The notes under the pieces: generated by a model
Database searches by the model: none
What the model saw: the letters and a program-made list of their open reading frames with translations, nothing else
Told to the model about the DNA's origin: nothing
Source: a virus
Taxonomy: Duplodnaviria > Heunggongvirae > Uroviricota > Caudoviricetes
Strand: one strand, 5' to 3'
Length of the DNA: 43,754 nt
Virus record (IMG/VR): IMGVR_UViG_2778261353_000008
Program-made: the position numbers and the translations under genes
In this document: piece by piece, positions 1,642 to 43,754 of the stretch
How positions within the stretch are numbered: the first letter of the stretch is position 1
How the letters are laid out: every line of letters starts with the position of its first letter

Positions 1642-1688
1642 TTTTACACCTCAGTTGGACGATGTTGAAATTTGCTGCTTTGAGGCCA

Positions 1689-1907: not shown

Positions 1908-2005
1908 CTTCCATTAATCCCTGAATTGTTGGTTAATACGCTTGAGGATGAATGCGAACAATAAAAAAGGAGCCTGTAGCTCCCTGATGATTTTGCTTTT
2001 CATGT

Positions 2006-2221
2006 TCACCGTTCCTTAAAGACGCCGTTTAACATGCCGATCGCCAGGCTTAAATGAGTCGGTGTGAATCCCATCAGCGTTACCGTTTCGCGGTGCTTCT
2101 TAAGTACGCTACGGCAAATGTCATCGACGTTTTTATCCGGAAACTGCTGTCTGGCTTTTTTGATTTCAGAATTAGCCTGACGGGCAATGCTGCGAAGGGC
2201 GTTTTCCTGCTGAGGTGTCAT
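2006..2221 (-). CDS. Lambda orf63-like small protein
   Basis: ORF 2006..2320 trimmed to internal Met MTPQQENALRSIARQANSEIKKARQQ...; DNA nearly identical to the lambda b-region sequence I recall. Confidence 0.6.
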   Translation of the reverse strand: MTPQQENALRSIARQANSEIKKARQQFPDKNVDDICRSVLKKHRETVTLMGFTPTHLSLAIGMLNGVFKER

Positions 2222-2301
2222 TGAACAAGTCCCATGTCGGCAAGCATAAGCACACAGAATATGAAGCCTGCTGCCAGAAAAATGCATTCCGTGGTTGTCA
2301 T
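2218..2301 (-). CDS. 27-aa hydrophobic peptide (MTTTECIFLAAGFIFCVLMLADMGLVQ), conserved with lambda
   Basis: Hand-translated; start overlaps methyltransferase stop (ATGA) and stop overlaps the orf63-like start (ATGA); below the 60-aa cut-off of the ORF track. Confidence 0.35.
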   Translation of the reverse strand: MTTTECIFLAAGFIFCVLMLADMGLVQ

Positions 2302-2855
2302 GCAGCTTCCCGACGGGCAAGAATCCTTGAGCCGAACGCCATCAACTCTCCACGATCAACGGTCGTAAAGTGGCAGTGTGTACGGGGGTATGGGTGCCAG
2401 ATAATGAGCATCGAGCCTTTATTATTTCCACTGACGGGTTTCTCAGTGAGTGGGTTAATAAATGCCAGTCGTCCTGCCGTGATGAATCTGACCTCACTGG
2501 CGGTTTGTATCGCTTCATGAAACCATCCGACAGATGTGTCAGCAGGCAATAACATTACACATCCCACACTACTGAATTTGTTTTCAGTGGCTGCCTTTTT
2601 CACAAAAGGGGAAATATTGCTGTATGGTGGATTCAACCAGACATAACCAGAGGCATATCCCATTGCTTCAGGCCATGAAGTGGTTAATGTGTTCTGCTCC
2701 TGTGAGATAAAAAGCCGACATAGTCGGTTTTTTTCGCTGGCGGCAGCATCAAGTTGAAAAACGAACTCTGCATTAAGCGCAGCAAAAATCTCTGGTGGTG
2801 TGCGCCAGCTGTCGCGATGTTCGGCAGGAGTATTGCTTCCGGTGAAATCAGTCAT
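2298..2855 (-). CDS. Phage DNA N6-adenine methyltransferase (Dam family), copy 1
   Basis: 185 aa; WRTPPEIF motif and NPPYS (DPPY-type catalytic motif), GNNKGSMLIIW; lies where lambda carries orf61 in the early-left operon. Confidence 0.8.
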   Translation of the reverse strand: MTDFTGSNTPAEHRDSWRTPPEIFAALNAEFVFQLDAAASEKNRLCRLFISQEQNTLTTSWPEAMGYASGYVWLNPPYSNISPFVKKAATENKFSSVGCVMLLPADTSVGWFHEAIQTASEVRFITAGRLAFINPLTEKPVSGNNKGSMLIIWHPYPRTHCHFTTVDRGELMAFGSRILARREAA

Positions 2856-3015
2856 ACAGCCCCCGTTTATTATTTATCGCCTCAGCCAGCCGCTGTGCTT
2901 TCAGTGGATTTCTGATAACAGAAAGGCCGGGAAATACCCAGCCTCGCTTTGTAACGGAGTAGATGAAAGTGATCGCGCCTACCCGGATATTATCGTGAGG
3001 ATGCTTCATCGCCAT
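2848..3015 (-). CDS. Lambda orf60a-like small protein (55 aa)
   Basis: Hand-translated [55 protein letters not shown]; matches the lambda orf60a N-terminus as I recall it but ends earlier where the methyltransferase begins. Confidence 0.4.
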
Positions 3016-3686
3016 TGCTCCCCAAATACAAAACCAATTTCAGCCAGTGCCACGTCCATTTTTTCGATGAACTCCGGCACCATCTCGTCAAAATTCGCCA
3101 TGTACTTTTCATTCCGCTCAATCACGACATAATGCAGGCCTTCACGCTTCATACGCGGGTCATAGTTGGCAAAGTACCAGGCATCTTTTCGCGTCACCCA
3201 CATGCTGTACTGCACCTGGGCCATGTAAGCCGATTTTATGGCCTCGAAACCACCGAGCCGGAACTTCATGAAATCCCGGGAGGTAAACGGGCATTTCAGT
3301 TCAAGGCCGTTGCCGTCACTGCATAAACCATCGGGAGAGCAGGCGGTGCGCATACTTTCGTCGCGATAGATGATCGGGGATTCAGTAACATTCACGCCGG
3401 AAGTGAATTCAAACAGGGTTCTGGCGTCGTTCTCGTACTGTTTTCCCCAGGCCAGCGCCTTAGCATTAACTTCCGGAGCCACACCGGTGCAAACCTCAGC
3501 CAGCAGGGTGTGGAAGTAGGACATTTTCATGTCAGGCCACTTTTTTCCGGAGCGGGGTTTTGCTATCACATTGTGAACTTCTGAAGCGGTGATGACGCCG
3601 AGCCGTAATTTGTGCCACGCATCATCCCCCTGTTCGACAGCTCTCACGTCGATTCCGGTACGCTGCAGGATAATGTCCGGTGTCAT
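3006..3686 (-). CDS. exo: Lambda exonuclease (Red alpha)
   Basis: 226 aa, essentially identical to lambda Exo ([43 protein letters not shown]...). Confidence 0.97.
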
Positions 3687-4468
3687 GCAGCCACCTTCTG
3701 CTCAGTGGCTTTCTGTTTCAGGAATCCAAGAGCTTTCACTGCTTCGGCCTGTGTCAGTTCTGACGATGCGCGAATGTCGCGGCGAAATATCTGGGAACAG
3801 AGCGGCAATAAGTCGTCATCCCATGTTTTATCCAGGGCAATCAGCAGAGTGTTAATCTCCTGCATGGTTTCATCGTTAACCGGAGTGATGTCGCGTTCCG
3901 GCTGACGTTCTGCAGTGTATGCGGTATTTTCGACAATGCGCTCGGCTTCATCCTTGTCATAGATACCAGCAAATCCGAAGGCCAGACGGGCACACTGAAT
4001 CATGGCTTTATGTCGTAACATCCGTTTGGGATGCGACTGCCACGGTCCGGTGATTTCTCTGCCTTCGCGGGTTTTGAATGGTTCGCGGCGGCATTCATCC
4101 ATCCACTCGGTAACGCAGATCGGATGATTGCGGTCCTTGCGGTAAATCCGGCATGTGCAGGATTCATTGTCCTGCTCAAAGTCCATACCATCAAACTGCT
4201 GGTTTTCATTGATGATGCGGGACCAGCCATCAACGCCCACCACCGGAACGATGCCATTCTGCTTATCAGGAAAGGCGTAAATTTCTTTCGTCCATGGATT
4301 AAGGCCGTACTGGTTGGCAACGATCAGTAATGCGATGAACTGCGCATCGCTGGCATCACCTTTAAATGCCGTCTGGCGAAGAGTGGTGATCAGTTCCTGT
4401 GGGTCGACAGAATCCATGCCGACACGTTCAGCCAGCTTCCCAGCCAGCGTTGCGAGTGCTGTACTCAT
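3683..4468 (-). CDS. bet: Recombination protein Bet (Red beta)
   Basis: 261 aa, matches lambda Bet ([59 protein letters not shown]...). Confidence 0.97.
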
Positions 4469-4473
4469 CCGTT

Positions 4474-4890
4474 TTATACCTCTGAATCAATATCAACCTG
4501 GTGGTGAGCAATGGTTTCAACCATGTACCGGATGTGTTCTGCCATGCGCTCCTGAAACTCAACATCGTCATCAAACGCACGGGTAATGGCTTTTTTGCTG
4601 GCCCCGTGGCGTTGTAAATGATCGATGCAGAGTGATTCAAACAGGTGCTGGGGCAGACCTTTTTCCATGTCGTCTGCCAGTTCTGCCTCTTTCTCTTCAC
4701 GGGCGATCTGCTGGTAGTGACGCGTCCAGCTCTGAGCCTCAAGACGATCCTGAATGTAATAAGCGTTCATGGCTGAACTCCTGAAATAGCTGTGAAAATA
4801 TCGCCCGCGAAATGCCGGGCTGATTAGGAAAACAGGAAAGGGGGTTAGTGAATGCTTTTGCTTGATCTCAGTTTCAGTATTAATATCCAT
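4474..4890 (-). CDS. gam: Host nuclease inhibitor Gam
   Basis: 138 aa, matches lambda Gam long form ([55 protein letters not shown]...). Confidence 0.96.
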
Positions 4891-4988
4891 TTTTTATAAG
4901 CGTCGACGGCCTCACGAAACATCTTTTCATCGCCAATAAAAGTGGCGATAGTGAATTTAGTCTGGATAGCCATAAGTGTTTGATCCAT
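4845..4988 (-). CDS. kil: Kil (FtsZ inhibitor), 47 aa
   Basis: ORF 4845..5114 trimmed to internal Met [47 protein letters not shown], matching lambda Kil. Confidence 0.85.
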
Positions 4989-5121
4989 TTTTTGGGACTC
5001 CTGGCTGATTAAGTATGTCGATAAGGCGTTTCCATCCGTCACGTAATTTACGGGTGATTCGTTCAAGTAAAGATTCGGAAGGGCAGCCAGCAACAGGCCA
5101 CCCTGCAATGGCATATTGCAT
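4957..5121 (-). CDS. cIII: CIII (FtsH inhibitor stabilising CII), 54 aa
   Basis: Hand-translated from reverse complement: [54 protein letters not shown]; overlaps kil as in lambda; absent from ORF track (<60 aa). Confidence 0.88.
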   Translation of the reverse strand: MQYAIAGWPVAGCPSESLLERITRKLRDGWKRLIDILNQPGVPKNGSNTYGYPD

Positions 5122-5193
5122 GGTGTGCTCCTTATTTATACATAACGAAAAACGCCTCGAGTGAAGCGTTATTGGTATGCGGTAACGCCGCGC

Positions 5194-5562
5194 TCAGGCG
5201 GCTTTGATAGTCATATCATCTGAATCAAATATTCCTGATGTATCGATATCGGTAATTCTTATTCCTTCGCTACCATCCATTGGAGGCCATCCTTCCTGAC
5301 CATTTCCATCATTCCAGTCGAACTCACACACAACACCATATGCATTTAAGTCGCTTGAAATTGCTATAAGCAGAGCATGTTGCGCCAGCATGATTAATAC
5401 AGCATTTAATACAGAGCCGTGTTTATTGAGTCGGTATTCAGAGTCTGACCAGAAATTATTAATCTGGTGAAGTTTTTCCTCTGTCATTACGTCATGGTCG
5501 ATTTCAATTTCTATTGATGCTTTCCAGTCGTAATCAATGATGTATTTTTTGATGTTTGACAT
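5194..5562 (-). CDS. ea10: Ea10-like early protein (122 aa)
   Basis: Length and position (between cIII and ral) match lambda ea10; flanking DNA matches lambda sequence I recall. Confidence 0.8.
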   Translation of the reverse strand: MSNIKKYIIDYDWKASIEIEIDHDVMTEEKLHQINNFWSDSEYRLNKHGSVLNAVLIMLAQHALLIAISSDLNAYGVVCEFDWNDGNGQEGWPPMDGSEGIRITDIDTSGIFDSDDMTIKAA

Positions 5563-5724
5563 CTGTTCATATCCTCATAGATAAAAAATCGCCCTCACAC
5601 TGGAGGGCAAAGAAGATTTCCAATAATCAGAACAAGTCGGCTCCTGTTTAGTTACGAGCGACATTGCTCCGTGTATTCACTCGTTGGAATGAATACACAG
5701 TGCAGTGTTTATTCTGTTGTTAGT

Positions 5725-5753
5725 GCCAAAAATAAAGGCCGACTATGCGGCCT
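5725..5753 (-). terminator. Putative rho-independent terminator downstream of the membrane-protein cassette
   Basis: Minus-strand RNA would form AGGCCG/CGGCCT stem (6 bp, 6-nt loop) followed by UUAUUUUUGG; sits immediately 3' of ORF 5758..6207. Confidence 0.5.
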
Positions 5754-5757
5754 GAAA

Positions 5758-6207
5758 TTACTTAACCAATGATGCTGCATATTCGATAAGGTAAAGCTTT
5801 GGAGCCAGCAAAATTTTTAACCATGTCATATTGGTTACTGCACTAATAATAAAAATCCCCCACAGAGCCAAAACTCCAACTAATGGCATGATAAGAAGAT
5901 TAATATCACCTTTGCTATCCCAAACCATTGTCGGCCTGTATTTGGGATTTCCCTTCTCCCATGAATATCCTTCATCACTGATTTTACCTGTCTCAACTCT
6001 TCGACACTGCTTCTTCATAAACCAGAAAACCAGTGGGATTGTTAGAATGGCTATTAATGTTTTAATCAGACTGTCAACCATATTCCATAGCAGCAACTGA
6101 TGAACAACATCAGGAATCTGCGCCTGGCTGAATGAAACAGCCGTGTCTATTCCATTGCTGGCTTTTTGCAGTAGTTCTACGAGAATCTTGTTTGCTTGTT
6201 CTTCCAT
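5758..6207 (-). CDS. Hypothetical integral membrane protein (149 aa), cassette inserted between ea10 and ral
   Basis: Two strongly hydrophobic segments (LIKTLIAILTIPLVFWFM and LLIMPLVGVLALWGIFIISAV); AAGGGG RBS upstream of ATG; AT-rich; absent from lambda at this junction. Confidence 0.65.
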   Translation of the reverse strand: MEEQANKILVELLQKASNGIDTAVSFSQAQIPDVVHQLLLWNMVDSLIKTLIAILTIPLVFWFMKKQCRRVETGKISDEGYSWEKGNPKYRPTMVWDSKGDINLLIMPLVGVLALWGIFIISAVTNMTWLKILLAPKLYLIEYAASLVK

Positions 6208-6266
6208 ATATCCCCTTGATTGTAATAAGCATGAAATTATTTACGGCCAAAAAATAAAGGCCACCA

Positions 6267-6467
6267 TCAGGCAGCCTTGTTGTTCTGTTTACCAAGTTCT
6301 CTGGCAATCATTGCCGTCGTTCGTATTGCCCATTTATCGACATATTTCCCATCTTCCATTACAGGAAACATTTCTTCAGACTTAACCATGCATTCCGATT
6401 GCAGCTTGCATCCATTGCATCGCTTGAATTGTCCACACCATTGATTTTTATCAATAGTCGTAGTCAT
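6267..6467 (-). CDS. ral: Restriction alleviation protein Ral
   Basis: 66 aa, matches lambda Ral (MTTTIDKNQWCGQFKRCNGCKLQSECMVK.EEMFPVMEDGKYVDKWAIRTTAMIARELGKQNNKAA). Confidence 0.95.
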   Translation of the reverse strand: MTTTIDKNQWCGQFKRCNGCKLQSECMVKSEEMFPVMEDGKYVDKWAIRTTAMIARELGKQNNKAA

Positions 6468-6595
6468 ACGGATAGTCCTGGTATTGTTCCATCACATCCT
6501 GAGGATGCTCTTCGAACTCTTCAAATTCTTCTTCCATATATCACCTCAAATAAGTGGTTTGCTGCCTAATTTTATTTTCTGGCGACCAACACAAG

Positions 6596-7479: not shown

Positions 7480-8382
7480 TTATGACTCACTTTGTTCTGA
7501 GAAGGGGAATGAAGACAGAACAAGAACCTGTCGATTTGTCTTATACATGTATTCATTAATGACGTTGTGCAGATTTTTTAACGCCATGCTAAAATCTTTG
7601 TCGTATGTAAAGTCTTCTACTTTAATTCTTAAGTCATTGATAAGAGTATTTATTCCTATCGTTCTTCCGTGAGAATGCCACTTTCCGTTGTCACTAAGAG
7701 CGGTAGCGATCATTTTAGCTCTCGCTTCTTTTTCCCTCTTGGAAACTAGCTTTCCTCGTTTTGTGTTACCTTGATGAACCGTCCACTCTCTGAATTTATA
7801 CTCTACAAGCCACTTCTTAAGCAAGTCTATTGATAGCTCTCTGGCTTGCTCGTATCTCCTTAAGTGCGCAAGATCTAACTGACTAAGCATCATTAGTTCA
7901 GCTTGGGTAATGGTTCCTTCTCTGGATTTAGTAATCATTTCTTCAACTTTATCAAGGTATCCCAAAGCAGGAACCCATTTACCGTCAGAGGATTGCACTT
8001 GAGGGTCAATGGGGCCTAATGAAGAAGCATAGTTCATGTAAATTTTATCTCCAGACATACACCATATTGTGCCTGCCGACATGGCCATATCTGGAATGAT
8101 AAAATATACCTCTTGATAGAAATGCCTTGTAATTTCTACCATTTTTTCCACAGACTCAACAGAGCCACCATTTGTATTGAGTATAATAACTAGAAATCTA
8201 TTGGTACGACTGTTAGCCATCTCCCCAATAGCCTCAAGTTTTGGTTGGTAAACTTCTTTTGACCATGGAAAGATACCACCGTAGTACGCTATGACGTCGC
8301 AGCTTGGGAAAAAGTTATTTTTAAATTGCTCTAACTGCCAAGAAATGTATGTTTCTAGTGTTGAATCAAGATTTTGGCTCAT
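7480..8382 (-). CDS. Clp-fold serine-peptidase-like protein (S49/SDH-family-like) in the rexAB slot
   Basis: 300 aa; motifs VIILNTNGGSVESVEKMVEI, IIPDMAMSAGT (putative Ser nucleophile), SSLGPIDPQ; immediately downstream of cI on the same strand; AT-rich; family assignment is from motif memory only. Confidence 0.6.
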   Translation of the reverse strand: MSQNLDSTLETYISWQLEQFKNNFFPSCDVIAYYGGIFPWSKEVYQPKLEAIGEMANSRTNRFLVIILNTNGGSVESVEKMVEITRHFYQEVYFIIPDMAMSAGTIWCMSGDKIYMNYASSLGPIDPQVQSSDGKWVPALGYLDKVEEMITKSREGTITQAELMMLSQLDLAHLRRYEQARELSIDLLKKWLVEYKFREWTVHQGNTKRGKLVSKREKEARAKMIATALSDNGKWHSHGRTIGINTLINDLRIKVEDFTYDKDFSMALKNLHNVINEYMYKTNRQVLVLSSFPFSEQSES

Positions 8383-8454: not shown

Positions 8455-9114
8455 TTACCCAAACGTCTCTTCAGGCCACTGACTAGCGATAACTTTCCCC
8501 ACAACGGAACAACTCTCATTGCATGGGATCATTGGGTATTGTGGGTTTAGTGGCTGTAGAAACACCTGACCGCTATCCCTGATCAGTTTCTTGAAGGTAA
8601 ATTCATCACCACCAAGTCTGGCTATGCAGAAATCGCCGGGCTCAACAGCTTGCTCAGGGTCAACCAGAATTAACATCCCGTCAGGAAAACTGGGTTTGGA
8701 ACCTGTTGGTGCGGTCATTGAGTTACCTTCAACCTCAAGCCAGAATGCAGAGTCACTGGCTTTTTTGGTTGTGCTTACCAATCTCTCCGCATCGCCTTTG
8801 GTAAAGGTTCTGAGTTCTGGAGAGAACATCCCAGCCTGAACATGAGAAAATACAGGGTACTCATATTGTTTTTTAACTGGGGCCGATGAGTATTCGCCAA
8901 CAGGTGAAAATGTCCCGTCGTGGTTGAATGATATGTTATCAATACCAAGGTATTTAAACACCAAACCAATATCACTAAGAGATGGATGACGAGATCCGCG
9001 CAACCAGTGTCCAATCCCACCCTGCGTCATACCTAGCTCTTCGGCTAACTTCTCTTGAGTTATGCCGAGCTCTTTCATTCTGGATCTAGCCAGTTCATAC
9101 CATTTCATTTTCAT
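8455..9114 (-). CDS. cI: CI-type prophage repressor (HTH-XRE N-terminus, LexA/S24-like C-terminal domain)
   Basis: ORF 8455..9156 trimmed to Met with AAGGA RBS ([37 protein letters not shown]...); C-terminal [13 protein letters not shown]...[23 protein letters not shown] resembles P22 C2 / lambda CI autocleavage domain; divergent from cro across an operator region. Confidence 0.88.
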
Positions 9115-9169
9115 GTCCTTATTATTACGCTCTGTACTGGAACCATCCATGCACAATGTGTATTTTTGC

Positions 9170-12309: not shown

Positions 12310-12833
12310 CTATCAAATCAAATACGCCAGCACACGACAAGGACTGCTGGCAAACGCCGCTTTGGCTTTTTGATGCACTGGATATTGAGTTTGGATTCTG
12401 GCTGGATTCGGCAGCGAGCGACAAAAATGCTCTGTGTGCTCACTGGCTAACTGAGGCCGACGACGCGCTCAATTCTGAGTGGGTAAGCCACGGTGCAATC
12501 TGGAATAACCCACCGTACAGCAATATCAGGCCGTGGGTGGAAAAAGCTGCTGAGCAGTGCATACAACAGCGACAGACGGTAGTTATGCTTGTGCCAGAGG
12601 ATATGTCAGTCGGATGGTTCAGCAAGGCTCTGGAGAGTGTCGACGAAGTTCGCATTATCACTGATGGACGGATTAATTTTATCGAACCATCGACAGGGCT
12701 GGAGAAGAAGGGAAACAGCAAAGGCTCCATGCTGCTGATTTGGCGACCGTTCATCAGTCCTCGACGGATGTTTACTACCGTATCCAAAGCGGCATTGATG
12801 GCGATCGGGCAGGGCGTCAGGAGGGCGGCATGA
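12306..12833 (+). CDS. Phage DNA N6-adenine methyltransferase (Dam family), copy 2
   Basis: ORF 12246..12833 trimmed to [25 protein letters not shown]...; NPPYS motif and [11 protein letters not shown]; start overlaps ninB stop (ATGA); occupies the lambda ninC/ninD slot. Confidence 0.8.
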
Positions 12834-14674: not shown

Positions 14675-15199
14675 TTATTGTTTAACCCATAATAATTCAT
14701 TGACATTGAATCCCAACTTTTGAGCGGTTCGCACATAGTCTGCTTTTACTTTATCTGGAATAGTTGGGGTCCTTGCCAGAATCCATAGGTATTCTCTGTT
14801 CGGACCACTGACAAGAGCATACTTATACTCATCATCCAGTTTGATTACATTATAGCCACCATAGAAGGGGCCAAAAAACGAAACCTTCAATGCTGCAGTT
14901 TTAGTATCTCCAGTAAAGTATGCTTTACCTTCGCTCTCGCTCCATTTATTTTTCGTTGGATCGTATCCACGGTTAAGTACACGAATCCCTCCGTCGTTCC
15001 GTTTTCCATAAGTAGCGCTGACCTGTTCCAGACCACGTTCGAACCGGTTCTCGAGGCGAGCTATTTCATACCATTTTCCGAGGTAGCGGTTGGCGTCAAA
15101 ATTTGTAATCGGCTGCACACCTTTAGGTGGTGTCGGGGCCTTACATGCTATAAGAGTGAAAGAGAGTGCAATGCCAGTCAACACAGGCCATAACTTCAT
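14675..15199 (-). CDS. blc: Blc-like bacterial lipocalin (outer-membrane lipoprotein)
   Basis: 174 aa; lipoprotein signal with lipobox LIAC; strong similarity to E. coli Blc as I recall it (NFDANRYLGKWYEIARLENRFERGLEQVSATY...YFTG...AALKVSFFGPFYGGYNVI...YLWILARTP). Confidence 0.85.
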   Translation of the reverse strand: MKLWPVLTGIALSFTLIACKAPTPPKGVQPITNFDANRYLGKWYEIARLENRFERGLEQVSATYGKRNDGGIRVLNRGYDPTKNKWSESEGKAYFTGDTKTAALKVSFFGPFYGGYNVIKLDDEYKYALVSGPNREYLWILARTPTIPDKVKADYVRTAQKLGFNVNELLWVKQ

Positions 15200-15391
15200 A
15201 ATAAATCCTGTACTTTTGATAGTTGAGAGTAAGTATGAAAGATAGATGATTACGACCGATCACTTAAAGAACTTTCATACTATATTAGGAATAGTCCATA
15301 ACAGAAAAATTGTCAGTGATGACGCCAGAAAGGCAATTTATTCCGTGCACTACACAGTTTATGTGTTAATGAATTAGTCAAGGGGGAGAAT

Positions 15392-16351
15392 ATGATAAAA
15401 AAACCTGTGATTGGAATCAGCGGTTGTTTGGCCGGTTCTGCTGTTCGTTTTGATGGTGGTCACAAAAGAGCTGACTTTTTAATGGACAAATTAGTGGAAT
15501 GGGTAACATTCAGACCAGTATGTCCGGAAATGGCTATAGGGCTGCCAGTTCCGCGTCCTGCTCTACGTCTTGTGCGCTCGATGCAAGGAAATATACGGAT
15601 GTGTTTCAGCCACGACCAGAATGAGGATGTGACAGAGAGAATGACAGAGTTTAGTCGTTCTTATATGGACAAATTAAAGGATGTATCGGGGTTTGTGGTT
15701 TGTGCTAAATCTCCCAGCTGTGGCATGGAGCGCGTGCGTGTCTATGATGAAAATGGTAATCGAGGTCGTAAAGATGGAGTGGGACTATTTACGAGCACTT
15801 TGATGGAAAAGTTTTCCTGGCTACCGGTTGAAGAGGATGGGCGATTACATGATCCAGTGCTTCGTGAGAATTTTGTTGAAAGAGTTTTTGCTTTGCATGA
15901 GCTCAATCACCTTTACAAGGAGAAATTATCAAGAAGAGAGTTATTAGCTTTTCATAGTCGTTATAAGCTTCAGTTGTTGGCGCATAGTCAGGCAGGCTAT
16001 AAAGATATGGGACCATTTGTGGCTGCAATACACGAGTGGGCGGACCTTGAATCATACTTTGAGGTGTATCGTGATAAGCTGATGGCGATTCTCAGAAAAC
16101 CTGCATCACGTAAAAATCACACGAATGTGCTGATGCATATACAGGGGTATTTTAGTAACTACTTAAGTACACGCCAGCGTAAAGAGTTGAGCGAGGTTAT
16201 ACTTAACTATCGTTCTGGCACATTACCTCTTCTTGCGCCGTTGACTCTGCTGAAGCATTATCTGGGTGAGTATCCTAATGATTACTTGCTTACACAGAAT
16301 TACTTCGATCCCTATCCGGACGAACTGGCTCTAAGACTGATGGTAAATTAA
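15392..16351 (+). CDS. DUF523/DUF1722 fusion protein (TudS-like N-terminal domain, YbgA-like C-terminal domain)
   Basis: 319 aa; N-terminal Cys in IGISGCLAG, PVCPE, AKSPSCGME consistent with Fe-S-binding DUF523/TudS-type proteins; C-terminal half YbgA-like; assignment from motif memory. Confidence 0.6.
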   Translation: MIKKPVIGISGCLAGSAVRFDGGHKRADFLMDKLVEWVTFRPVCPEMAIGLPVPRPALRLVRSMQGNIRMCFSHDQNEDVTERMTEFSRSYMDKLKDVSGFVVCAKSPSCGMERVRVYDENGNRGRKDGVGLFTSTLMEKFSWLPVEEDGRLHDPVLRENFVERVFALHELNHLYKEKLSRRELLAFHSRYKLQLLAHSQAGYKDMGPFVAAIHEWADLESYFEVYRDKLMAILRKPASRKNHTNVLMHIQGYFSNYLSTRQRKELSEVILNYRSGTLPLLAPLTLLKHYLGEYPNDYLLTQNYFDPYPDELALRLMVN

Positions 16352-16702
16352 TTGTATGCGATATCATCCAAAAGGATGAGTTCCTGCATGCAGGATATTT
16401 ACAATCGTAAAAACTACACTATGATACCCAGAGTGTCAGTTTGTATAAAAACTCTGTTTACGCTGAAGAAACAATTGAGATGCAACTTAAAGTTGGTAAA
16501 CATGCCAGTCAAAATATATAATATTATGATTCCACGCAGCTATATATAATATAACAGATTGGTTTAATAATTTGTCTTTGTGAGTTAAATACATAATTTT
16601 ATACTTGTGATGCAATGAAATTTTCCTTATTGTTGAACTGGCGAATATTGATTTTCCACCTATACTTACCTGGTGTAACCCCAATGATATCAGGTGGATA
16701 AT

Positions 16703-17434
16703 ATGCCATACATATGTTCTATCATTTTGGTGTTGAACTCGTTTGATGTCCGAATTGGTAAAGAAGATATTTTGTTTAAAAAAGGAAGTGCTGTTCTCAT
16801 TGATTACAATTTAAAAGATTTTTTTTCATCAAATATAGATCATGTAATGATCGTAGATGTTGAAGAGAAAACAGTTAATGATTTCTTTAAAAGCAACACA
16901 CTCTCACCTTTTTCTGTAAGAAGGTTTTATCCGGCATACTTGATGGTGGAATGTGAAGATTTTTCATTGTTAAAGAACTTGATTGCATGCTTGAATTGTG
17001 ATGGCAGAACTGTGGATTTTGTTAGAAATCAAATATCACTTGCATGTCTTGCTATCTTATCTTCAGAGAAAATAGTGCAAAGTTTTTTATTTGGATGTCT
17101 TAATAGTTTAGGAAGTAAAGTTAAGGCTATTATTCACACGGATATATCTGCAGCATGGAGACTTTGTGATATATCTTCAAGACTGTATCTGAGTGAAAGT
17201 CTGTTAAAAAGAAAATTAAAGCACGAAGGCTTATCATTTAGTAAGTTAATTCTTGAAGAGCGAATGGTGATGGCGGAAAGGTTATTAAGCTACAATTTAT
17301 ATTCTGTTGGAAAAGTTGCTGAGATATGCGGTTATGAAAACACGTCATATTTTGTAAGTGTTTTCAGAAGGTATTTTGGTGTTCCTCCCCATCAATATTC
17401 ATCAAGATTTTTTTTAGAAAAAGACATGATGTAA
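16703..17434 (+). CDS. AraC-family transcriptional regulator (AppY-like)
   Basis: ORF 16694..17434 trimmed to first ATG; C-terminal AraC HTH (LSESLLKRKLKHEGLSFSKLILEERMVMAERLL...VAEICGYENTSYFVSVFRRYFGVPPHQY); N-terminus MPYICSIILVLNSFD resembles DLP12 AppY; AT-rich gene. Confidence 0.8.
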   Translation: MPYICSIILVLNSFDVRIGKEDILFKKGSAVLIDYNLKDFFSSNIDHVMIVDVEEKTVNDFFKSNTLSPFSVRRFYPAYLMVECEDFSLLKNLIACLNCDGRTVDFVRNQISLACLAILSSEKIVQSFLFGCLNSLGSKVKAIIHTDISAAWRLCDISSRLYLSESLLKRKLKHEGLSFSKLILEERMVMAERLLSYNLYSVGKVAEICGYENTSYFVSVFRRYFGVPPHQYSSRFFLEKDMM

Positions 17435-35375: not shown

Positions 35376-38300
35376 ATGGGTAAAGGCAGCAGTAAGGGGC
35401 ATACTCCGCGCGAAGCGAAGGACAACCTGAAGTCCACGCAGTTGCTGAGTGTGATCGATGCCATCAGCGAAGGGCCGGTTGAAGGTCCGGTGGATGGATT
35501 AAAAAGCGTGCTGCTGAACAGTACGCCAGTGCTGGACAGTGAGGGGAATACCAATATCTCCGGCGTCACGGTGGTGTTCCGGGCCGGTGAGCAGGAGCAG
35601 ACACCGCCGGAGGGATTTGAATCCTCCGGCTCCGAGACGGTGCTGGGTACGGAAGTGAAATACGACACGCCGATCACCCGGACCATCACGTCGGCAAACA
35701 TTGACCGACTGCGTTTTACCTTCGGCGTGCAGGCACTGGTGGAAACCACCTCAAAGGGGGACAGGAATCCGTCGGAAGTCCGCCTGCTGGTTCAGATCCA
35801 GCGTAATGGTGGCTGGGTGACGGAAAAAGACATCACCATTAAGGGCAAAACCACCTCGCAGTATCTGGCCTCGGTGGTGGTGGGTAACCTGCCGCCGCGC
35901 CCGTTCAATATCCGGATGCGCAGGATGACGCCGGACAGCACCACAGACCAGCTGCAGAACAAAACGCTCTGGTCGTCATACACCGAAATCATCGATGTGA
36001 AACAGGGCTACCCGAACACGGCACTGGTCGGCGTGCAGGTGGATTCGGAGCAGTTCGGCAGCCAGCAGGTGAGCCGTAATTATCATCTGCGCGGGCGCAT
36101 TCTGCAGGTGCCGTCGAGCTATAACCCGCAGACGCGGCAATACAGCGGTATCTGGGACGGAACGTTTAAGCCGGCATACAGCAACAACATGGCCTGGTGT
36201 CTGTGGGATATGCTGACCCATCCGCGCTACGGCATGGGGAAACGTCTTGGTGCGGCGGATGTGGACAAATGGGCGCTGTATGTCATCGGCCAGCATTGCG
36301 ATCAGTCGGTGCCGGACGGTTTTGGCGGCACGGAGCCGCGCATCACCTGTAATGCGTACCTGACCACACAGCGCAAGGCGTGGGATGTGCTCAGTGATTT
36401 CTGCTCTGCGATGCGCTGTATGCCGGTATGGAACGGGCAGACGCTGACGTTCGTGCAGGACCGACCGTCGGATAAGGTGTGGACCTATAACCGCAGTAAT
36501 GTGGTGATGCCGGATGATGGTGCGCCGTTCCGCTACAGCTTCAGCGCCCTGAAGGACCGCCATAATGCCGTTGAGGTGAACTGGATTGACCCGAATAACG
36601 GCTGGGAGACGGCGACAGAGCTTGTGGAGGACACGCAGGCCATTGCCCGTTACGGTCGTAACGTCACGAAGATGGATGCTTTTGGCTGTACCAGCCGGGG
36701 GCAGGCACACCGCGCCGGGCTGTGGCTGATTAAAACAGAACTGCTGGAAACGCAGACCGTGGACTTCAGCGTGGGTGCCGAAGGGCTTCGCCATGTACCG
36801 GGCGATGTCATTGAAATCTGCGATGATGACTATGCCGGTATCCGCACCGGCGGGCGCGTGCTGGCGGTAAACAGCCAGACCCGGACGCTGACGCTCGACC
36901 GTGAAATCACGCTGCCATCTTCCGGCACCACGCTGATAAGCCTGGTTGACGGGCAGGGGAGTCCGGTCAGCGTGGAGGTTCAGTCCGTCACCGACGGCGT
37001 GAAGGTGAAAGTGAGCCGTGTTCCTGACGGCGTTGCTGAATACAGCGTATGGGGGCTGAAGCTGCCGACGCTGCGCCAGCGCCTGTTCCGCTGCGTGAGT
37101 ATCCGTGAGAACGACGACGGCACGTATGCCATCACCGCCGTGCAGCATGTACCGGAAAAAGAGGCCATCGTGGATAACGGGGCGCACTTTGACGGCGACC
37201 AGAGCGGCACGGTAAATGGTGTCACGCCGCCAGCGGTGCAGCACCTGACCGCAGAAGTCACCGCAGACAGCGGGGAATACCAGGTGCTGGCCCGCTGGGA
37301 CACGCCGAAGGTGGTGAAGGGCGTGAGCTTCCTGCTTCGCCTGACCGTGGCAGCGGATGACGGCCGTGAGCGGCTGGTCAGCACGGCCCGGACGACGGAA
37401 ACCACTTACCGCTTCACACAACTGGCTCTGGGGAACTACAGGCTGACAGTCCGGGCAGTAAATGCGTGGGGGCAGCAGGGCGATCCGGCGTCGGTATCGT
37501 TCCGGATTGCCGCACCGGCAGCGCCGTCGCGGATTGAGCTGACGCCGGGCTATTTTCAGATAACCGCCACGCCGCATCTTGCGGTTTATGACCCGACGGT
37601 ACAGTTTGAGTTCTGGTTCTCGGAAAAACGGATTGCGGATATCAGGCAGGTTGAAACCAGCGCGCGTTATCTTGGTACGGCACTGTACTGGATAGCCGCC
37701 AGTATCAATATCAAACCGGGCCATGATTATTATTTTTACGTTCGCAGTGTGAACACCGTTGGCAAATCGGCATTCGTGGAGGCTGTCGGTCAGCCGAGTG
37801 ATGATGCATCAGGCTATCTGGATTTTTTCAAAGGAGAAATCGGGAAAACACATCTGGCCCAGGAGCTGTGGACGCAGATTGATAACGGTCAGCTTGCGCC
37901 GGACCTGGCTGAAATCAGGACGTCCATTACGAATGTCAGCAATGAAATCACGCAGACCGTCAATAAAAAACTGGAAAATCAGAGTGCGGCAATCCAGCAG
38001 ATACAGAAAGTTCAGGTTGATACAAATAATAACCTGAACAGCATGTGGGCCGTGAAACTGCAGCAGATGCAGGACGGACGCCTTTATATTGCGGGTATCG
38101 GTGCCGGTATTGAGAATACGCCAGCAGGAATGCAGAGTCAGGTGCTGCTGGCGGCAGACAGGATTGCGATGATTAATCCTGCGAATGGCAACACAAAGCC
38201 GATGTTTGTTGGTCAGGGCGATCAGATATTTATGAATGAAGTGTTCCTGAAATATCTGACGGCTCCCACCATTACCAGCGGCGGTAATCCTCCGGCATTT

Positions 38301-38855
38301 TCCCTGACACCGGACGGGCGGCTGACGGCGAAAAATGCCGATATCAGCGGTAACGTGAATGCGAACTCCGGGACGCTCAACAACGTCACGATTAACGAGA
38401 ACTGTCGGGTTCTGGGAAAATTGTCCGCGAACCAGATTGAAGGCGATCTCGTTAAAACAGTGGGCAAAGCTTTCCCCCGGGACTCCCGTGCACCGGAGCG
38501 GTGGCCATCAGGAACCATTACCGTCAGGGTTTATGACGATCAGCCGTTTGACCGGCAGATTGTTATTCCGGCGGTGGCATTCAGCGGCGCTAAACATGAG
38601 AAAGAGCATACTGATATTTACTCCTCATGCCGTCTGATAGTGCGGAAAAACGGTGCTGAAATTTATAACCGTACCGCGCTGGATAATACGCTGATTTACA
38701 GTGGTGTTATTGATATGCCTGCCGGTCACGGTCACATGACACTGGAGTTTTCGGTGTCAGCATGGCTGGTAAATAACTGGTATCCCACAGCAAGTATCAG
38801 CGATTTGCTGGTTGTGGTGATGAAGAAAGCCACTGCAGGCATCACGATTAGCTGA
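35376..38855 (+). CDS. J: Tail tip / host-specificity protein J; N-terminal ~800 aa lambda-like, C-terminal receptor-binding region divergent
   Basis: 1159 aa (lambda J is 1132 aa); lambda-like up to about ...[21 protein letters not shown], then diverges apart from a conserved [20 protein letters not shown] block. Confidence 0.92.
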
Positions 38856-38922: not shown

Positions 38923-39522
38923 ATGCGTAAATTATGTGCTGTTATTTTGTCCGCAGTAGTCTGGCAGGTCGCCGCTGCTACGCCAGCGAGTGCAGCAGAA
39001 CATCAGTCCACGCTGAGCGCGGGGTATCTCCATGCCTCGACGAACGTTCCCGGTAGTGATGATCTGAACGGGATTAACGTGAAATACCGTTATGAGTTTA
39101 CGGACGCGCTGGGGCTGGTGACGTCATTCAGCTATGCAGGAGACAAGAATCGCCAGCTGACCCGTTACAGCGATACCCGCTGGCATGAAGATTCCGTTCG
39201 TAACCGCTGGTTCAGCGTAATGGCGGGGCCGTCTGTGCGCGTGAATGAATGGTTCAGCGCGTATGCGATGGCGGGTGTAGCTTACAGCCGTGTGTCGACT
39301 TTCTCCGGGGATTATCTTCGCGTAACTGACAACAAGGGGAAAAAGCACGATGTGCTGACCGGAAGTGATGACGGTCGCCACAGCAACACGTCTCTGGCGT
39401 GGGGGGCTGGCGTGCAGTTTAACCCGACCGAATCCGTGGCCATTGATATTGCTTATGAAGGCTCCGGCAGTGGTGACTGGCGCACTGACGGTTTCATCGT
39501 GGGTGTCGGTTATAAATTCTGA
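38923..39522 (+). CDS. lom: Lom/Ail-family outer membrane protein
   Basis: 199 aa with signal peptide and C-terminal beta-barrel ending ...GSGSGDWRTDGFIVGVGYKF as in lambda Lom; same position as lambda lom but divergent sequence. Confidence 0.85.
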   Translation: MRKLCAVILSAVVWQVAAATPASAAEHQSTLSAGYLHASTNVPGSDDLNGINVKYRYEFTDALGLVTSFSYAGDKNRQLTRYSDTRWHEDSVRNRWFSVMAGPSVRVNEWFSAYAMAGVAYSRVSTFSGDYLRVTDNKGKKHDVLTGSDDGRHSNTSLAWGAGVQFNPTESVAIDIAYEGSGSGDWRTDGFIVGVGYKF

Positions 39523-39580: not shown

Positions 39581-42500
39581 GTGAATATGGCAGTAAAGAT
39601 TTCAGGTGTACTGAAAGACGGTGCAGGTAAACCGGTACAGAACTGTACAATCCAGCTGAAAGCAAAACGTAACAGCACCACGGTGGTGGTGAACACGGTG
39701 GCCTCAGAAAATCCGGATGAAGCCGGGCGTTACAGCATGGACGTTGAGTACGGTCAGTACAGCGTTATTCTGTTGGTGGAAGGATTCCCGCCGTCACATG
39801 CCGGGACCATCACCGTGTATGAAGATTCCCGACCCGGTACGCTGAATGATTTTCTCGGTGCCATGACGGAGGATGATGCCCGTCCGGAGGCTCTGCGCCG
39901 TTTTGAACTGATGGTGGAAGAGGTGGCGCGTAACGCGTCCGCGGTGGCACAGAACACGGCAGCCGCGAAGAAATCAGCCAGCGATGCCAGCACATCAGCC
40001 CGTGAGGCGGCAACCCATGCGACTGATGCTGCAGATTCAGCACGTGCAGCCAGCACGTCAGCCGGACAGGCCGCTTCGTCGGCTCAGTCAGCGTCTTCCA
40101 GCGCAGGAACGGCATCAACAAAGGCCACTGAAGCCTCAAAAAGTGCTGCCGCTGCAGAGTCCTCAAAAAGCGCGGCGGCTACCAGTGCCGGTGCGGCGAA
40201 AACGTCAGAAACGAATGCGGCAGCGTCACAACAATCAGCAGCCACTTCTGCATCCACCGCGACCACGAAAGCGTCAGAAGCTGCCACCTCAGCCCGGGAT
40301 GCGTCGGCCTCAAAAGAGGCAGCGAAATCATCAGAAACGAACGCATCATCAAGTGCCAGTAGTGCAGCTTCCTCGGCAACGGCGGCAGGAAATTCCGCGA
40401 AGGCCGCAAAAACGTCTGAGACGAATGCAGATAACAGCGCACAGGCGGCAGCAGACTCACAAACTGCATCAGCAAACTCCGCGACAGCAGCCAAAAAATC
40501 AGAAACCAACGCGAAAAATAGCGAGGCAGCAGCAAAGAGCAGCGAAACCAACGCTAAAGCCAGCGAAACTAATGCTAAATCCAGTGAAACAAACGCGGCG
40601 AAATCTGCGGCGGACGCACTTAATTATCGCAACCAGGCGCAAGTAATTGTTGGCGATAATATCGGTCTTGGTGAAGTTGCCATGACCTGCACTGATATCT
40701 CTGTTGAGCCATCAGGTTATATTGGATTTGTCAGGATTTACATCTCAGCGAAAGGTTATCCATCAGTAGCGTCTAGTGCCGGTGATAATCTTATTTCTGG
40801 TTATATAGTTAGATCAGAAGTGTCAACAAAAAGATATTCCGGTCTATTTGTTGGTTCAGATACAAAATCATTGTATTCGTACATTTACAGCCAAAGTTCT
40901 GGCCCGCAATGGATACGTCATACCCGCAGAGATGAATTAAGCCGCTTTGGTCAAAATGAATCAACAACTCGTATGTATGGTCCAACTGGTGATCGTTTCT
41001 TTGAAATCCATACTAACGGGAGTTGGGGAGTTTATGATTCTTCTTCTGGACAATGGTCTCCGTTAGGTTTAGCCCAGGGCGGTACTGGTGGAAGAACTAT
41101 CGAGCAAGCACGTGCGAACTTGCGGGTAATGTATGAGCAAAAAGCTGGCCTTGCTAATACTGACCTAAACACCCTTACCGGTGAATATTCTGGTTTCTAT
41201 CAACAACCAACGAGCGCTTACGCAACAGAAGAATTAAATTACCCAATCGGTCTGGCGGGCGCTTTAATAGTGCTCCAAACGAGAGCCAACACTGCTTCTT
41301 CCTGCGTTCAGGTGTACTACCCTTATAATAATCCGGGAATTACTTATAGACGAATATATGAAGGAGGAAGCGGTACCTGGTCTGAATGGAAGAGAGATGT
41401 ATCAACAGAAAGGGTTGAAGAGGGAAAAGAAACAACTTACGTATATTCTACGTATTCTTCAGGCGCACCACGCTTACAGGTTTCCAAATCTGGTTTGTGG
41501 GGTTGTCATAATGGCACTGGCTGGTTGCCATTAGCTGTTGGGCAAGGAGGTACAGGTGCGACAACAGTAGAAGATGCGCGAAACAACTTAAGTCTTGGCG
41601 AAAGTAGCGCAGTTAAATTTAAAAACCTTACTTTAACCGAAGCGCTCGACACGACATTAGGACTGCTTACAAAAACAGGACGAGACTGGAACACGCAGCA
41701 TACTGATAACATTAATAAATTTATACCAATTGCAGGCAGTACAAACGGCCCGGCAGGTTCTATGGTTCTTGGCGGCATTCATGTTCAATTTAGTAAAAAT
41801 TATGCTGTGCAGTTCGGAGGCCGCAATTCCGGTTTTTGGGGAAGAACAATTGAAAATGGAACGACGCAGGAATGGAAGAAATTACTAACAGTAGACGATC
41901 TCAATTCATCTACCGATCTTGCTGTCAGGTCATTAACCACATCTAACCCGGTAAAATCTGGCGGAGGGCGAATTGATGTCCTTGGAAGCACGTCAGACTA
42001 TAGCAAAATGGATTGCTTTGTACGTGGGTTTGATAGCACCGGTAATTCTCTCGCGTGGGCGTTGGGTTCATCAGTCGGCGTAAGTAAGATGCTGTCGCTA
42101 AAAAATTTCTTTAGCGGAGCTGAGATACTGTTAAATGGTAATGACGGCGCGGTTCAACTCAAAACAGGTGCTGTTAACGGGGCTAAAGCGCAGGCGCTCA
42201 CTATCAACAAGGATGAGGTTAACTCAACTGTTGATTTAACTCTTACAAAACAAACAGGGACTGGAAATCGTTTTGTTTTACAGAACTTAGGTAATACAGA
42301 ACTATCATTTGCCGCAAAAGTATGGGGATCAAGTGATCGACAAAACGTTTTTGAGGTTGGAACGTCTGCTGCGTATCTGTTTTATGCGCAAAAAACGTCA
42401 GCAGGCCAGTTGTTTGATGTAAATGGCGCTATTAATTGCACAACGCTGAATCAGTCATCAGACCGCGACCTTAAAGACGATATTCTCGTTATCAGCGACG

Positions 42501-42892
42501 CGACGAAAGCAATCCGTAAAATGAACGGATACACCTACACGCTCAGGGAAAACGGGATGCCTTATGCTGGCATTATTGCACAGGAAGTAATGGAGGCGAT
42601 ACCAGAAGCTGTGGGATCGTTTACTCATTACGGTGAAGAGTTGCAGGGACCAACGGTTGACGGCAATGAATTACGTGAAGAAACACGTTATCTGAATGTT
42701 GACTACGCCGCCGTGACGGGGTTACTTGTTCAGGTCGCCCGTGAAACAGATGGTCGCGTTACCGCGCTGGAAGAGGAAAACATAACGCTACGTAAAAATC
42801 TGGCAACAGCAGGCACCCGGATCAGCACTCTGGAAAATCAGGTAAGCGAACTGGTTGCACTTGTCGGGCAGTTAACAGGAAGCGAACATTGA
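39581..42892 (+). CDS. stf: Side tail fibre with lambda-Stf-like N-terminus, Ala/Ser-rich repeat shaft and C-terminal intramolecular chaperone (peptidase S74-like) domain
   Basis: 1103 aa; N-terminal ~200 aa match lambda Stf; C-terminus contains ...NQSSDRDLKDDI... followed by NGYTYTLRENGMPYAGIIAQEV...YLNVDYAAVTGLLVQ, typical of self-cleaving IMC domains (endosialidase / T5 pb1 type). Confidence 0.85.
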   Translation: MNMAVKISGVLKDGAGKPVQNCTIQLKAKRNSTTVVVNTVASENPDEAGRYSMDVEYGQYSVILLVEGFPPSHAGTITVYEDSRPGTLNDFLGAMTEDDARPEALRRFELMVEEVARNASAVAQNTAAAKKSASDASTSAREAATHATDAADSARAASTSAGQAASSAQSASSSAGTASTKATEASKSAAAAESSKSAAATSAGAAKTSETNAAASQQSAATSASTATTKASEAATSARDASASKEAAKSSETNASSSASSAASSATAAGNSAKAAKTSETNADNSAQAAADSQTASANSATAAKKSETNAKNSEAAAKSSETNAKASETNAKSSETNAAKSAADALNYRNQAQVIVGDNIGLGEVAMTCTDISVEPSGYIGFVRIYISAKGYPSVASSAGDNLISGYIVRSEVSTKRYSGLFVGSDTKSLYSYIYSQSSGPQWIRHTRRDELSRFGQNESTTRMYGPTGDRFFEIHTNGSWGVYDSSSGQWSPLGLAQGGTGGRTIEQARANLRVMYEQKAGLANTDLNTLTGEYSGFYQQPTSAYATEELNYPIGLAGALIVLQTRANTASSCVQVYYPYNNPGITYRRIYEGGSGTWSEWKRDVSTERVEEGKETTYVYSTYSSGAPRLQVSKSGLWGCHNGTGWLPLAVGQGGTGATTVEDARNNLSLGESSAVKFKNLTLTEALDTTLGLLTKTGRDWNTQHTDNINKFIPIAGSTNGPAGSMVLGGIHVQFSKNYAVQFGGRNSGFWGRTIENGTTQEWKKLLTVDDLNSSTDLAVRSLTTSNPVKSGGGRIDVLGSTSDYSKMDCFVRGFDSTGNSLAWALGSSVGVSKMLSLKNFFSGAEILLNGNDGAVQLKTGAVNGAKAQALTINKDEVNSTVDLTLTKQTGTGNRFVLQNLGNTELSFAAKVWGSSDRQNVFEVGTSAAYLFYAQKTSAGQLFDVNGAINCTTLNQSSDRDLKDDILVISDATKAIRKMNGYTYTLRENGMPYAGIIAQEVMEAIPEAVGSFTHYGEELQGPTVDGNELREETRYLNVDYAAVTGLLVQVARETDGRVTALEEENITLRKNLATAGTRISTLENQVSELVALVGQLTGSEH
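40195..40600 (+). repeat. Tandem degenerate repeats encoding K(S/T)SETNA units in the stf shaft
   Basis: Repeated ...aaa(a/t)c(a/g)tc(a/t)ga(a/g)ac(g/c)aa(c/t)gc... units read directly; the same repeat class is present in lambda Stf. Confidence 0.7.
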
Positions 42893-42943
42893 TATCCTTC
42901 AAGCCCTGAAGGAGGCTGTTCCTGGTACGTTCAGACTGTTGTT

Positions 42944-43066
42944 GAGCTGGAAATCGCAACGGAGGAAGAAACTTCGTTGCTGGAAGTCTGGAAAAAGTAT
43001 CGGGTGTTGCTGAACCGTGTTAATACATCAGTAGTACCGGATATTGAATGGCCAGCACTGCCGTAG
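42944..43066 (+). pseudogene. tfa: 3' remnant of tail fibre assembly gene tfa
   Basis: Frame continuing after the stf stop encodes ...[40 protein letters not shown], matching the lambda Tfa C-terminus; no start codon or N-terminal portion present. Confidence 0.7.
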
Positions 43067-43163
43067 GGTAAAACATATAAATTCTATAATTAGATGTATC
43101 TTTCCATTTACGGCAAGGAAGGGGGCTTGGAAGACGTAAAGCATCTCACACCGAGATTATTTT

Positions 43164-43754
43164 TTATATGTCAGGTGTCTGAAGTTTTGCTTTGGCTCTT
43201 AAAATGGTTTGCCGCGAGGTTTTGAATTCCCGGGCAATGGCACTTATACTTACACCTGACTTAATTCGTTCGAATACCACCTGTTTCTGTTCTTCATTTA
43301 ACACAGGTGGTCGACCAAAACGTTTCCCTGCGCCGCGGGCTCTTACTATCCCGGAATGAGTGCGTTCAAGTAAAAGGTCTCGTTCAAATTCAGCGACTGC
43401 TGAAATTACTTGCATCATCATTTTTCCTGTTGGACTGGTCAGGTCAATGCCACCCAATGCTAAGCAATGCACTCTGATACCTGTTTCGGTCAGTTGTTCC
43501 ACTGTTTTCCTGATATCCATTGCATTACAACCAAGGCGATCCAGTTTTGTCACAATCAATTGATCACCACATTTCAGGCGAGCAAGCAACCGGTTAAAAC
43601 CAGGACGCTCACTGGTTGCTGCTGAGCCGCTAATGTGTTCTTCGATTATTTGCTGAGGTTTGATTTTAAAACCTGCACTTTCGATTTCCCGGCGTTGATT
43701 TTCGGTGGTCTGATCCAGCGTTGATATCCGACAGTAAGCAAAAATTCGAGACAT
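43164..43754 (-). CDS. pin: Serine recombinase / DNA invertase (Pin/Hin/Gin family)
   Basis: 196 aa; N-terminal resolvase catalytic domain ([17 protein letters not shown], catalytic Ser) and C-terminal HTH; start codon is the last 3 nt of the window; typical position next to tail-fibre genes. Confidence 0.88.

Follow-up and report, generated by a model that had tools for sequence, protein, structure and literature searches.

Cassette exchange as the probable origin of a lambda-type side tail fibre with a predicted self-chaperoning S74 tip, a tfa stub and an orphan pinR

We analysed the right end of IMG/VR record IMGVR_UViG_2778261353_000008, a stretch of 43,754 nucleotides from a tailed virus of the Caudoviricetes (hereafter the window), where a side tail fibre gene (stf) ending in a Peptidase_S74 domain is followed by a remnant of the tail fibre assembly gene tfa and then by a complete recombinase gene on the opposite strand (positions 39581 to 43754). 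Every sequence feature named in the first-pass annotation is present, at the coordinates given there or close to them. We regard it as highly probable that this arrangement arose by exchange of a fibre cassette, through illegitimate and then homologous recombination with the conserved tfa 3' end as right-hand anchor, and that it consists of a fibre with its own S74 chaperone, a dead tfa stub and an orphan PinR recombinase. The locus is an ordinary cassette-exchange mosaic with an orphan PinR alongside, and it is already annotated: RefSeq names all three parts, namely a 'pyocin knob domain-containing S74 family peptidase' (the label of proteins identical to this Stf) or 'prophage tail fiber N-terminal domain and S74 family...', a tfa pseudogene and pinQ.

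The stf gene (39587-42892, plus strand) encodes 1101 amino acids from the ATG at 39587, which gives the lambda-type start MAVKISG and is the RefSeq start for a 100% identical protein from strain UTAK-18 (WP_097586172.1). An in-frame GTG at 39581 lengthens the open reading frame by two residues (39581-42892, 1103 amino acids); the Pfam ranges and the residue numbers Ser960 and Lys965 used here count from this GTG, and Ser960 is Ser958 in ATG numbering. Peptidase_S74 (PF13884) matches residues 960-1011 of 1103 with an E value of 2.4e-11 and 44.2 bits against a cut-off of 22, and the homologues of Stf carry a precomputed PF13884 assignment. Residues 939-1011 align with gp37 of Salmonella phage S16 (PDB 6f45) across SSDR[DR][LI]K, which reads SSDRRIK in 6f45. 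Within this motif lies a Ser-x4-Lys dyad, S960-D-R-D-L-K965, whose spacing equals that of Ser1264/Lys1269 in T5. In an alignment of 28 homologues (41-93% identity), Ser960 and Lys965 are each kept in at least 90% of the proteins, and the region N-terminal to the dyad varies freely. The profile match, the 6f45 alignment and the conserved dyad bear out the proposal of the first-pass annotation that stf ends in an S74-type intramolecular chaperone, and we assign 42458-42889 (plus strand; 144 amino acids, Peptidase_S74 core plus coiled coil) to this domain on sequence evidence, with the structure predictions left unused. Among further searches, the best PHROG match of Stf was 6578 'tail fiber protein' over residues 675-1090, an NCBIfam search gave no family, and a profile search of the PDB with the alignment returned no endosialidase or T5 entries and a weak match to MYRF (E 0.12).

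The T5 fibre protein pb1 is cut between Thr1263 and Ser1264, with Lys1269 activating the serine, and the serine departs with the chaperone (PMC4690869). Because T5 pb1 is cut at this bond, we place the predicted autocleavage of Stf by analogy at NQS|SDRDLK, directly before Ser960 and with Lys965 as its partner, so that the released part would comprise 144 residues. A cleavage site had previously been suggested around 42458 and drawn as NQSS|DRDLK; the coordinate is right, since the Ser960 codon starts at 42458, but by the T5 analogy the bar stands one residue too far downstream. The fibre resembles the T5 pb1 L-shaped fibre, the K1F endosialidase and S16 gp37 in having a C-terminal Peptidase_S74 domain with Ser-x4-Lys at its start, followed by a region predicted to be a long helix, and it shares with S74 fibres and spikes the position of this domain at the very C-terminus of a trimeric fibre. 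It differs from the T5, K1F and S16 proteins in belonging to a temperate siphovirus and in having the N-terminal anchor of lambda Stf, and its cleavage is predicted from sequence. It is reasonable to suppose that, with an internal chaperone in place, tfa could be dispensed with. In phages mEp460, Ayreon and PhiR70_1 the annotation shows no intact tfa after the S74-type Stf, nor does it show one after the related fibre of the virulent phage FritzHoffmann.

What is left of tfa is the last 45 codons and the stop of a lambda/Rac-type gene (42929-43066, plus strand). The 57 codons past the stf stop match Caudo_TAP at profile positions 87-130 of 131 only (E 8.5e-18), and in a tblastn comparison residues 147-191 of TfaR align to 42929-43063, followed by the stop at 43064-43066. 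A full-length Tfa would have about 190 amino acids, the whole profile and a start codon, and the stub falls short of this: in the open reading frame listing, no start codon in its frame yields 30 or more amino acids. RefSeq calls the identical stretch a tail fiber assembly protein, 'incomplete; missing N-terminus'. The stub begins 36 nucleotides after the stf stop and lies in the stf frame, which is a one-in-three chance event. Thus, a C-terminal tfa remnant in the stf frame had been correctly recognised in the first pass, though it comprises 45 codons from 42929 rather than about 40 from 42944 and does not follow the stop immediately.

Comparison with related loci suggests how these parts were joined. 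From 42930 to 43754 the window is homologous to the Rac (tfaR-pinR) and Qin (tfaQ-pinQ) prophages of K-12 with 97.5% identity in blastn, and from 42300 to 43052, that is, from inside stf through the stub, it is homologous to mEp460 with 98.8% identity, after which this homology ends. At base level the window equals mEp460 from the stf 3' end to about 43020 and Rac/Qin from about 43045. Because the left part of the stub equals the mEp460 lineage and its right end the Rac/Qin lineage, these alignments place a homologous-recombination joint within the stub, at about 43020-43045, where a lineage with the S74 cassette and the stub meets one with the tfa 3' end and pinR. Such exchanges have precedent: lambda swaps stf/tfa DNA with Rac and Qin by homologous recombination, as was shown experimentally, and in a third of the Rac recombinants the right-hand joint fell within a tfa region of 95% identity (De Paepe et al., PMC3945230).

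The same cassette, the same 36-nucleotide spacer and the same stub are found without pin in mEp460, Ayreon and PhiR70_1, and pin stands beside a full-length tfa in Rac, Qin and phage mEp460_ev081. By this comparison of sequences the stub is linked to the S74 cassette and not to pin, which speaks against the earlier view of the locus as a product of recombination at a tail-fibre shufflon. At the Qin site, K-12 has stfQ-tfaQ-pinQ and strains LR-06 and RM9088 have an S74-type stf, the stub and pinQ; this difference is an allelic replacement. The S74-type stf allele in the LR-06 Qin cryptic prophage (3962-6593 of the fetched locus) has its 5' end cut by IS1. Moreover, in phages Tritos and PhiR63_1 another fibre cassette precedes a shorter stub (TfaR residues 156-191, 36 codons) and PinR; their stub is a second, independent truncation left by cassette replacement. 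The fibre module of Tritos (954-5123 of the fetched locus; also in PhiR63_1) encodes a 790-amino-acid Stf, a 93-amino-acid open reading frame, a second fibre protein of 346 amino acids and an open reading frame of 97 amino acids.

The K-12 loci stfR-tfaR-pinR of Rac and stfQ-tfaQ-pinQ of Qin share with the window the gene order, the orientation and, as noted, the sequence from tfa codon 147 through pin, and the relatives of the window have ydfK/ynaE and ynaM/ynfT beyond pin just as Rac and Qin do. The window differs from them by the S74 cassette in place of the distal stf and tfa codons 1-146. On the other hand, mEp460 (JQ182728), Ayreon and PhiR70_1 have the same distal cassette, spacer with palindrome and stub breakpoint but no pin; there, dinI and int (mEp460) or other cargo come after the stub, and the middle part of the side tail fibre is different. 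These arrangements are common, as 805 of 5426 complete E. coli genomes contain the junction between the S74 end and the stub (42780-43010), often in more than one copy each, and 145 genomes contain the whole 42300-43754 arrangement, with 100% identity in two.

The left edge of the cassette lies within stf. The N-terminal part of the fibre is of lambda type, with a phage_tail_N tail-attachment domain (PF08400; residues 3-136, E 4.5e-72; 39587-39988, plus strand) and a location after J and lom in the late operon, and residues 3-96 are near-identical to PDB 9e7m ('Tail fiber protein', E 2.9e-51). This conserved left flank, common to Rac StfR and other lambdoid Stf proteins, extends over 39587-40639 (plus strand): Stf 1-351 is 79.6% identical to StfR 1-393 in blastp, and the StfR homology stops at residue 351. 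The flank holds Ala/Ser-rich repeats and has a guanine-plus-cytosine content of 0.52-0.61, which drops near 40600 from about 0.6 to 0.40-0.47 (about 0.42) in the cassette. A 21-nucleotide tandem repeat (2.7 copies, TRF) at 40540-40596, near the cassette left edge, encodes SETNAK-type heptads of the Ala/Ser-rich shaft. From these breakpoints in homology and base composition, the exchangeable distal cassette covers 40640-42928 (plus strand) and consists of shaft, knob, tip, S74 domain and the 36-nucleotide 3' spacer. Its knob-like region (41171-41605, plus strand) corresponds to residues 531-675, which match PDB 6cl5_A 'Tail fiber protein' (E 2.4e-06). Stf residues 670-1101 are 89% identical to the mEp460 protein, and the distal cassette DNA also matches lateral fibres of virulent phages, at 74% in FritzHoffmann and 68% in the T5-like slur09. 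Just before the S74 domain, residues of about 905-955 (about 42300-42450; VWGSS..RQNVFEVG..YLFYAQK..VNG) resemble the C-terminal region of the T4 proximal long tail fibre gp34 (PDB 4uxe, profile E 2.5e-09), a motif common to temperate-phage and T-even fibres.

The recombinase gene (43164-43754, minus strand) encodes a complete pinR/pinQ-type small serine recombinase of 196 amino acids with the domains Resolvase (PF00239, E 2.5e-36) and HTH_7 (PF02796, E 3.8e-11), and its motif Y-x-R-x-S-T-x-D-Q aligns with PinE, all of which are features of small serine recombinases; an NCBIfam search returned sub-threshold matches only. It is 100% identical to K-12 PinR and 99% to PinQ. On the other hand, it shares only 38% with PinE and 36% with Mu Gin, which are 78% identical to each other, so that it is not close to the Din-family invertases. 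Because of these identities, we place it by sequence in the PinR/PinQ group, outside the classical Gin/Pin/Hin/Cin clade. The initial description as a complete invertase in opposite orientation was right, but not its assignment to the Pin/Gin type. PinQ, PinR and PinE are all reported to invert the 1797-bp P segment of e14, PinQ and PinR doing so in trans, and BLAST surveys found inversions in e14 only and none in Qin or Rac (Kirigo et al., PMC12529663).

The presence of a recombinase beside a fibre gene raises a different explanation, in which the junction is the scar of an invertase acting at a tail-fibre shufflon, with a palindrome next to the stf stop as the relic of a crossover site and a segment able to invert just beyond pin. 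Pin-type genes indeed adjoin fibre genes in e14 and Mu as well as here, and older literature, as cited in De Paepe et al. (PMC3945230), has fibre-associated invertases driving the exchange of stf segments between phages. In Mu G/gin, e14 P/pinE and P1 C/cin a serine recombinase also stands beside tail fibre and tfa genes, but there two inverted 26-bp sites enclose duplicate alternative fibre ends and tfa, and the invertase gene points away from the segment. The present locus shows none of these features and lacks the adjacent invertible segment expected of a Din-family system. When the window and 13 related loci were scanned for 26-bp gix/pix/hix sites with an 18-base consensus and up to 6 mismatches, both e14 sites (1 mismatch) and both Mu sites (2 mismatches) were recovered as controls, whereas no site with 4 or fewer mismatches was found in the window or the 13 loci; the few 5-mismatch matches in the window all lie far from stf and pin, and even with 6 mismatches allowed no match fell near stf, the stub or pin. 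The palindrome, which lies in the cassette 3' spacer and is identical in mEp460, does exist, its two fully matching 7-bp arms (42895-42901 and 42907-42913) enclosing a 5-nucleotide loop (42895-42913, no strand), but it differs from the gix/pix consensus at 10-11 of 18 positions and is a chance-level hairpin with no function indicated: the window contains 30 such 7-bp hairpins against 14.7 +/- 4 in shuffled sequences, and this one is unremarkable among them. Its RNA folds no better than shuffled sequence (z-score 0.10), and neither a terminator-like site nor a T-run after the palindrome nor an Rfam family was found in the region. A search for inverted repeats near stf-pin in the window, and over the 7.5 kb surrounding pin in UTAK-18, gave only short, imperfect chance pairs.

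The invertible segment that had been expected outside the window is likewise not there in three related genomes, representing two integration sites, where pin is followed by ydfK and ynaM/ynfT and then by prophage remnants or non-prophage DNA, without inverted sites or alternative fibre ends. The relatives at the Qin site continue with IS1 (one strain) and then the host gene ydfJ, and the relative at the DLP12 site with DLP12-type ybcY'/tfaX' remnants and then host genes. Together with the surveys cited above, with the occurrence of the stub junction in phages without pin and with its position inside tfa rather than at the constant/variable boundary of the fibre gene, these results make the shufflon explanation very improbable. 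The relatives hold about 1.3 kb of further prophage DNA (ydfK, ynaM/ynfT) beyond pin. At the DLP12 site of UTAK-18, two tfa 3' remnants of 113 nucleotides and 82% identity, the stub and a tfaX-like one (12633-12745 and 15405-15517 of the fetched locus), flank pin-ydfK-ynaM-ybcY'; as they are direct repeats, they could mediate deletion, not inversion.

Two further alternatives concern whether the stub and the fibre are alive. The stub could yield a mini-chaperone or adaptor, by read-through of the stf stop or by translation from an internal start, or could act as a regulatory element for the convergent pin; its position in the stf frame, the UGA stop of stf, the retention of the junction in 805 genomes and the conservation of these Tfa proteins, which is strongest in their C-terminal 40-45 residues, fit this idea. 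However, the shared frame needs no explanation beyond chance, no in-frame start yields 30 or more amino acids, and a read-through extension would, by analogy with cleaved S74 fibres, ride on the chaperone domain that is cut off. Moreover, the stub differs from TfaR at 11 of its 45 amino acids while the adjacent pin is 100% identical, independent stubs of another length exist, RefSeq treats the stretch as a pseudogene, and it has neither an Rfam family nor a stable fold. We therefore consider a living stub extremely improbable. Somewhat less remote, though still unlikely, is that the S74-type Stf is an inert passenger that is not assembled on virions, as in lambda PaPa, which would make its mode of chaperoning irrelevant. 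This would suit the viability of lambda-type phages without Stf and the decayed neighbours in some relatives (lom and J pseudogenes, and the stf of LR-06 truncated by IS1), but the 3.3-kb open reading frame is intact here and 100% identical in another genome, its N-terminal anchor is near-identical to the solved chain 9e7m, the catalytic dyad is conserved, and the same cassette is intact in three isolated phages.

Several points weigh against our preferred explanation by cassette exchange and a self-chaperoning fibre. Lambda-type phages form plaques without Stf, so that the viability of mEp460 and its relatives is no proof of a functional fibre. An AlphaFold2 monomer model of the last 244 Stf residues, a protein that is an obligate trimer, reached a moderate pLDDT of 68 and a pTM of 0.35, with a long C-terminal helix at 183-241, and a Foldseek search of the PDB with this low-confidence model gave no significant match, the chaperone structure 3gw6 appearing at E 1.8; because the model confidence was too low and the matches were non-significant, these results were set aside. 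A donor for the last ~150 nucleotides of the cassette and the spacer was not found, as the homology to virulent-phage fibres ends at about 42780. Finally, the DNA beyond 43754 was deduced from relatives, the best genome matches of the window being 97% identical and having different J alleles.

With these reservations, exchange of a fibre cassette would have proceeded as follows. The starting layout would be the order J, lom, stf, tfa, pin that is usual at the right end of the late region in lambdoid prophages; here, a foreign receptor-binding cassette with its own chaperone replaced the distal two-thirds of stf together with the first three-quarters of tfa. Comparison of the loci suggests that one illegitimate joint set the 3' end of the cassette inside tfa at about codon 147. 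The remaining 45-codon stub would be non-coding and part of the highly conserved tfa 3' end, which may serve as an anchor for homologous recombination among lambdoid phages and may have let the S74 cassette plus stub move between backbones; a second, homologous joint in the stub (at the position given above) would then connect it to the pinR-ydfK module. Judging from the S74 family, the Stf polypeptide probably trimerises from its C-terminal S74 domain, which would template the folding of the fibre tip and then cleave itself off before Ser960 through the Ser960/Lys965 dyad. We therefore propose that the last 144 residues are missing from the mature fibre, which would have no need of a separate Tfa. 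The recombinase would be an orphan with no site in cis; its reported target, on which it would act in trans, is the P segment of e14 at another place in the chromosome.

A more speculative thought starts from the stubs. Because stubs of differing length (45 codons here, 36 in Tritos and PhiR63_1) recur beside unrelated fibre cassettes, the conserved tfa 3' end might be kept as a landing pad for the capture of fibre cassettes, possibly with PinR/PinQ acting at non-canonical sites; alternatively, a phage-borne PinR beside stf might act in superinfection exclusion by switching the fibre-like genes that other prophages of the lysogen carry. We think there is little chance that either holds.

As it stands, the locus gives a clean, base-resolved case of a receptor-binding cassette swap in a lambdoid phage, anchored by homology in the conserved 5' part of stf and the 3' end of tfa, and it suggests that the acquisition of a self-chaperoning S74 tip would make a neighbouring tfa disposable. 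It also illustrates that a 'Pin' gene beside fibre genes is no evidence of a local invertible segment, as orphans of the PinR/PinQ group are reported to act in trans. For phage engineering, the cassette boundaries at about 40640 and 42928 mark natural sites for joining Stf chimeras that would not depend on a helper chaperone. Beyond correct annotation, its importance is small.

The window as a whole is filled by the lambda-like prophage, from the integrase gene at the left end to the recombinase gene at the right end. Since a tyrosine integrase gene (1-1164, minus strand) begins its stop codon at base 1 and the ATG of pinR forms the last three bases (43752-43754), the window seems to be a piece of prophage trimmed to gene boundaries, with attL and attR beyond its ends. 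Upstream of stf, the open reading frame listing and Pfam identify J (35376-38855) and lom (38923-39522). J encodes 1159 amino acids here and 1132 (3399 bp) in the closest complete genomes, although the remaining tail genes are about 97% shared, and therefore the central fibre was also swapped independently of stf. The sole Rfam family in the window is Lambda_thermo, the cIII thermoregulator element (5076-5134, minus strand; 88.5 bits, E 2e-20). A recombination module at 2298-4468 (minus strand) consists of a Dam-type N6-adenine methyltransferase (2298-2855), a YqaJ-like exonuclease (3006-3686) and a RecT annealase (3683-4468); RecT/Rad52-like modules of this kind have been shown to drive relaxed homologous exchange with defective prophages. 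An open reading frame of 300 amino acids at 7480-8382 (minus strand) contains a ClpP-like SDH-type serine protease domain (PF01972, E 1.6e-10) and adjoins a CI-like repressor gene (8455-9156, minus strand), the position of rexAB in lambda; it may be a cargo or defence gene expressed in the lysogen. Further cargo-like genes lie between the replication and late regions (14675-17434) and encode a Blc-like lipocalin (minus strand), a 2-thiouracil desulfurase/DUF1722 protein and an AraC-family regulator.

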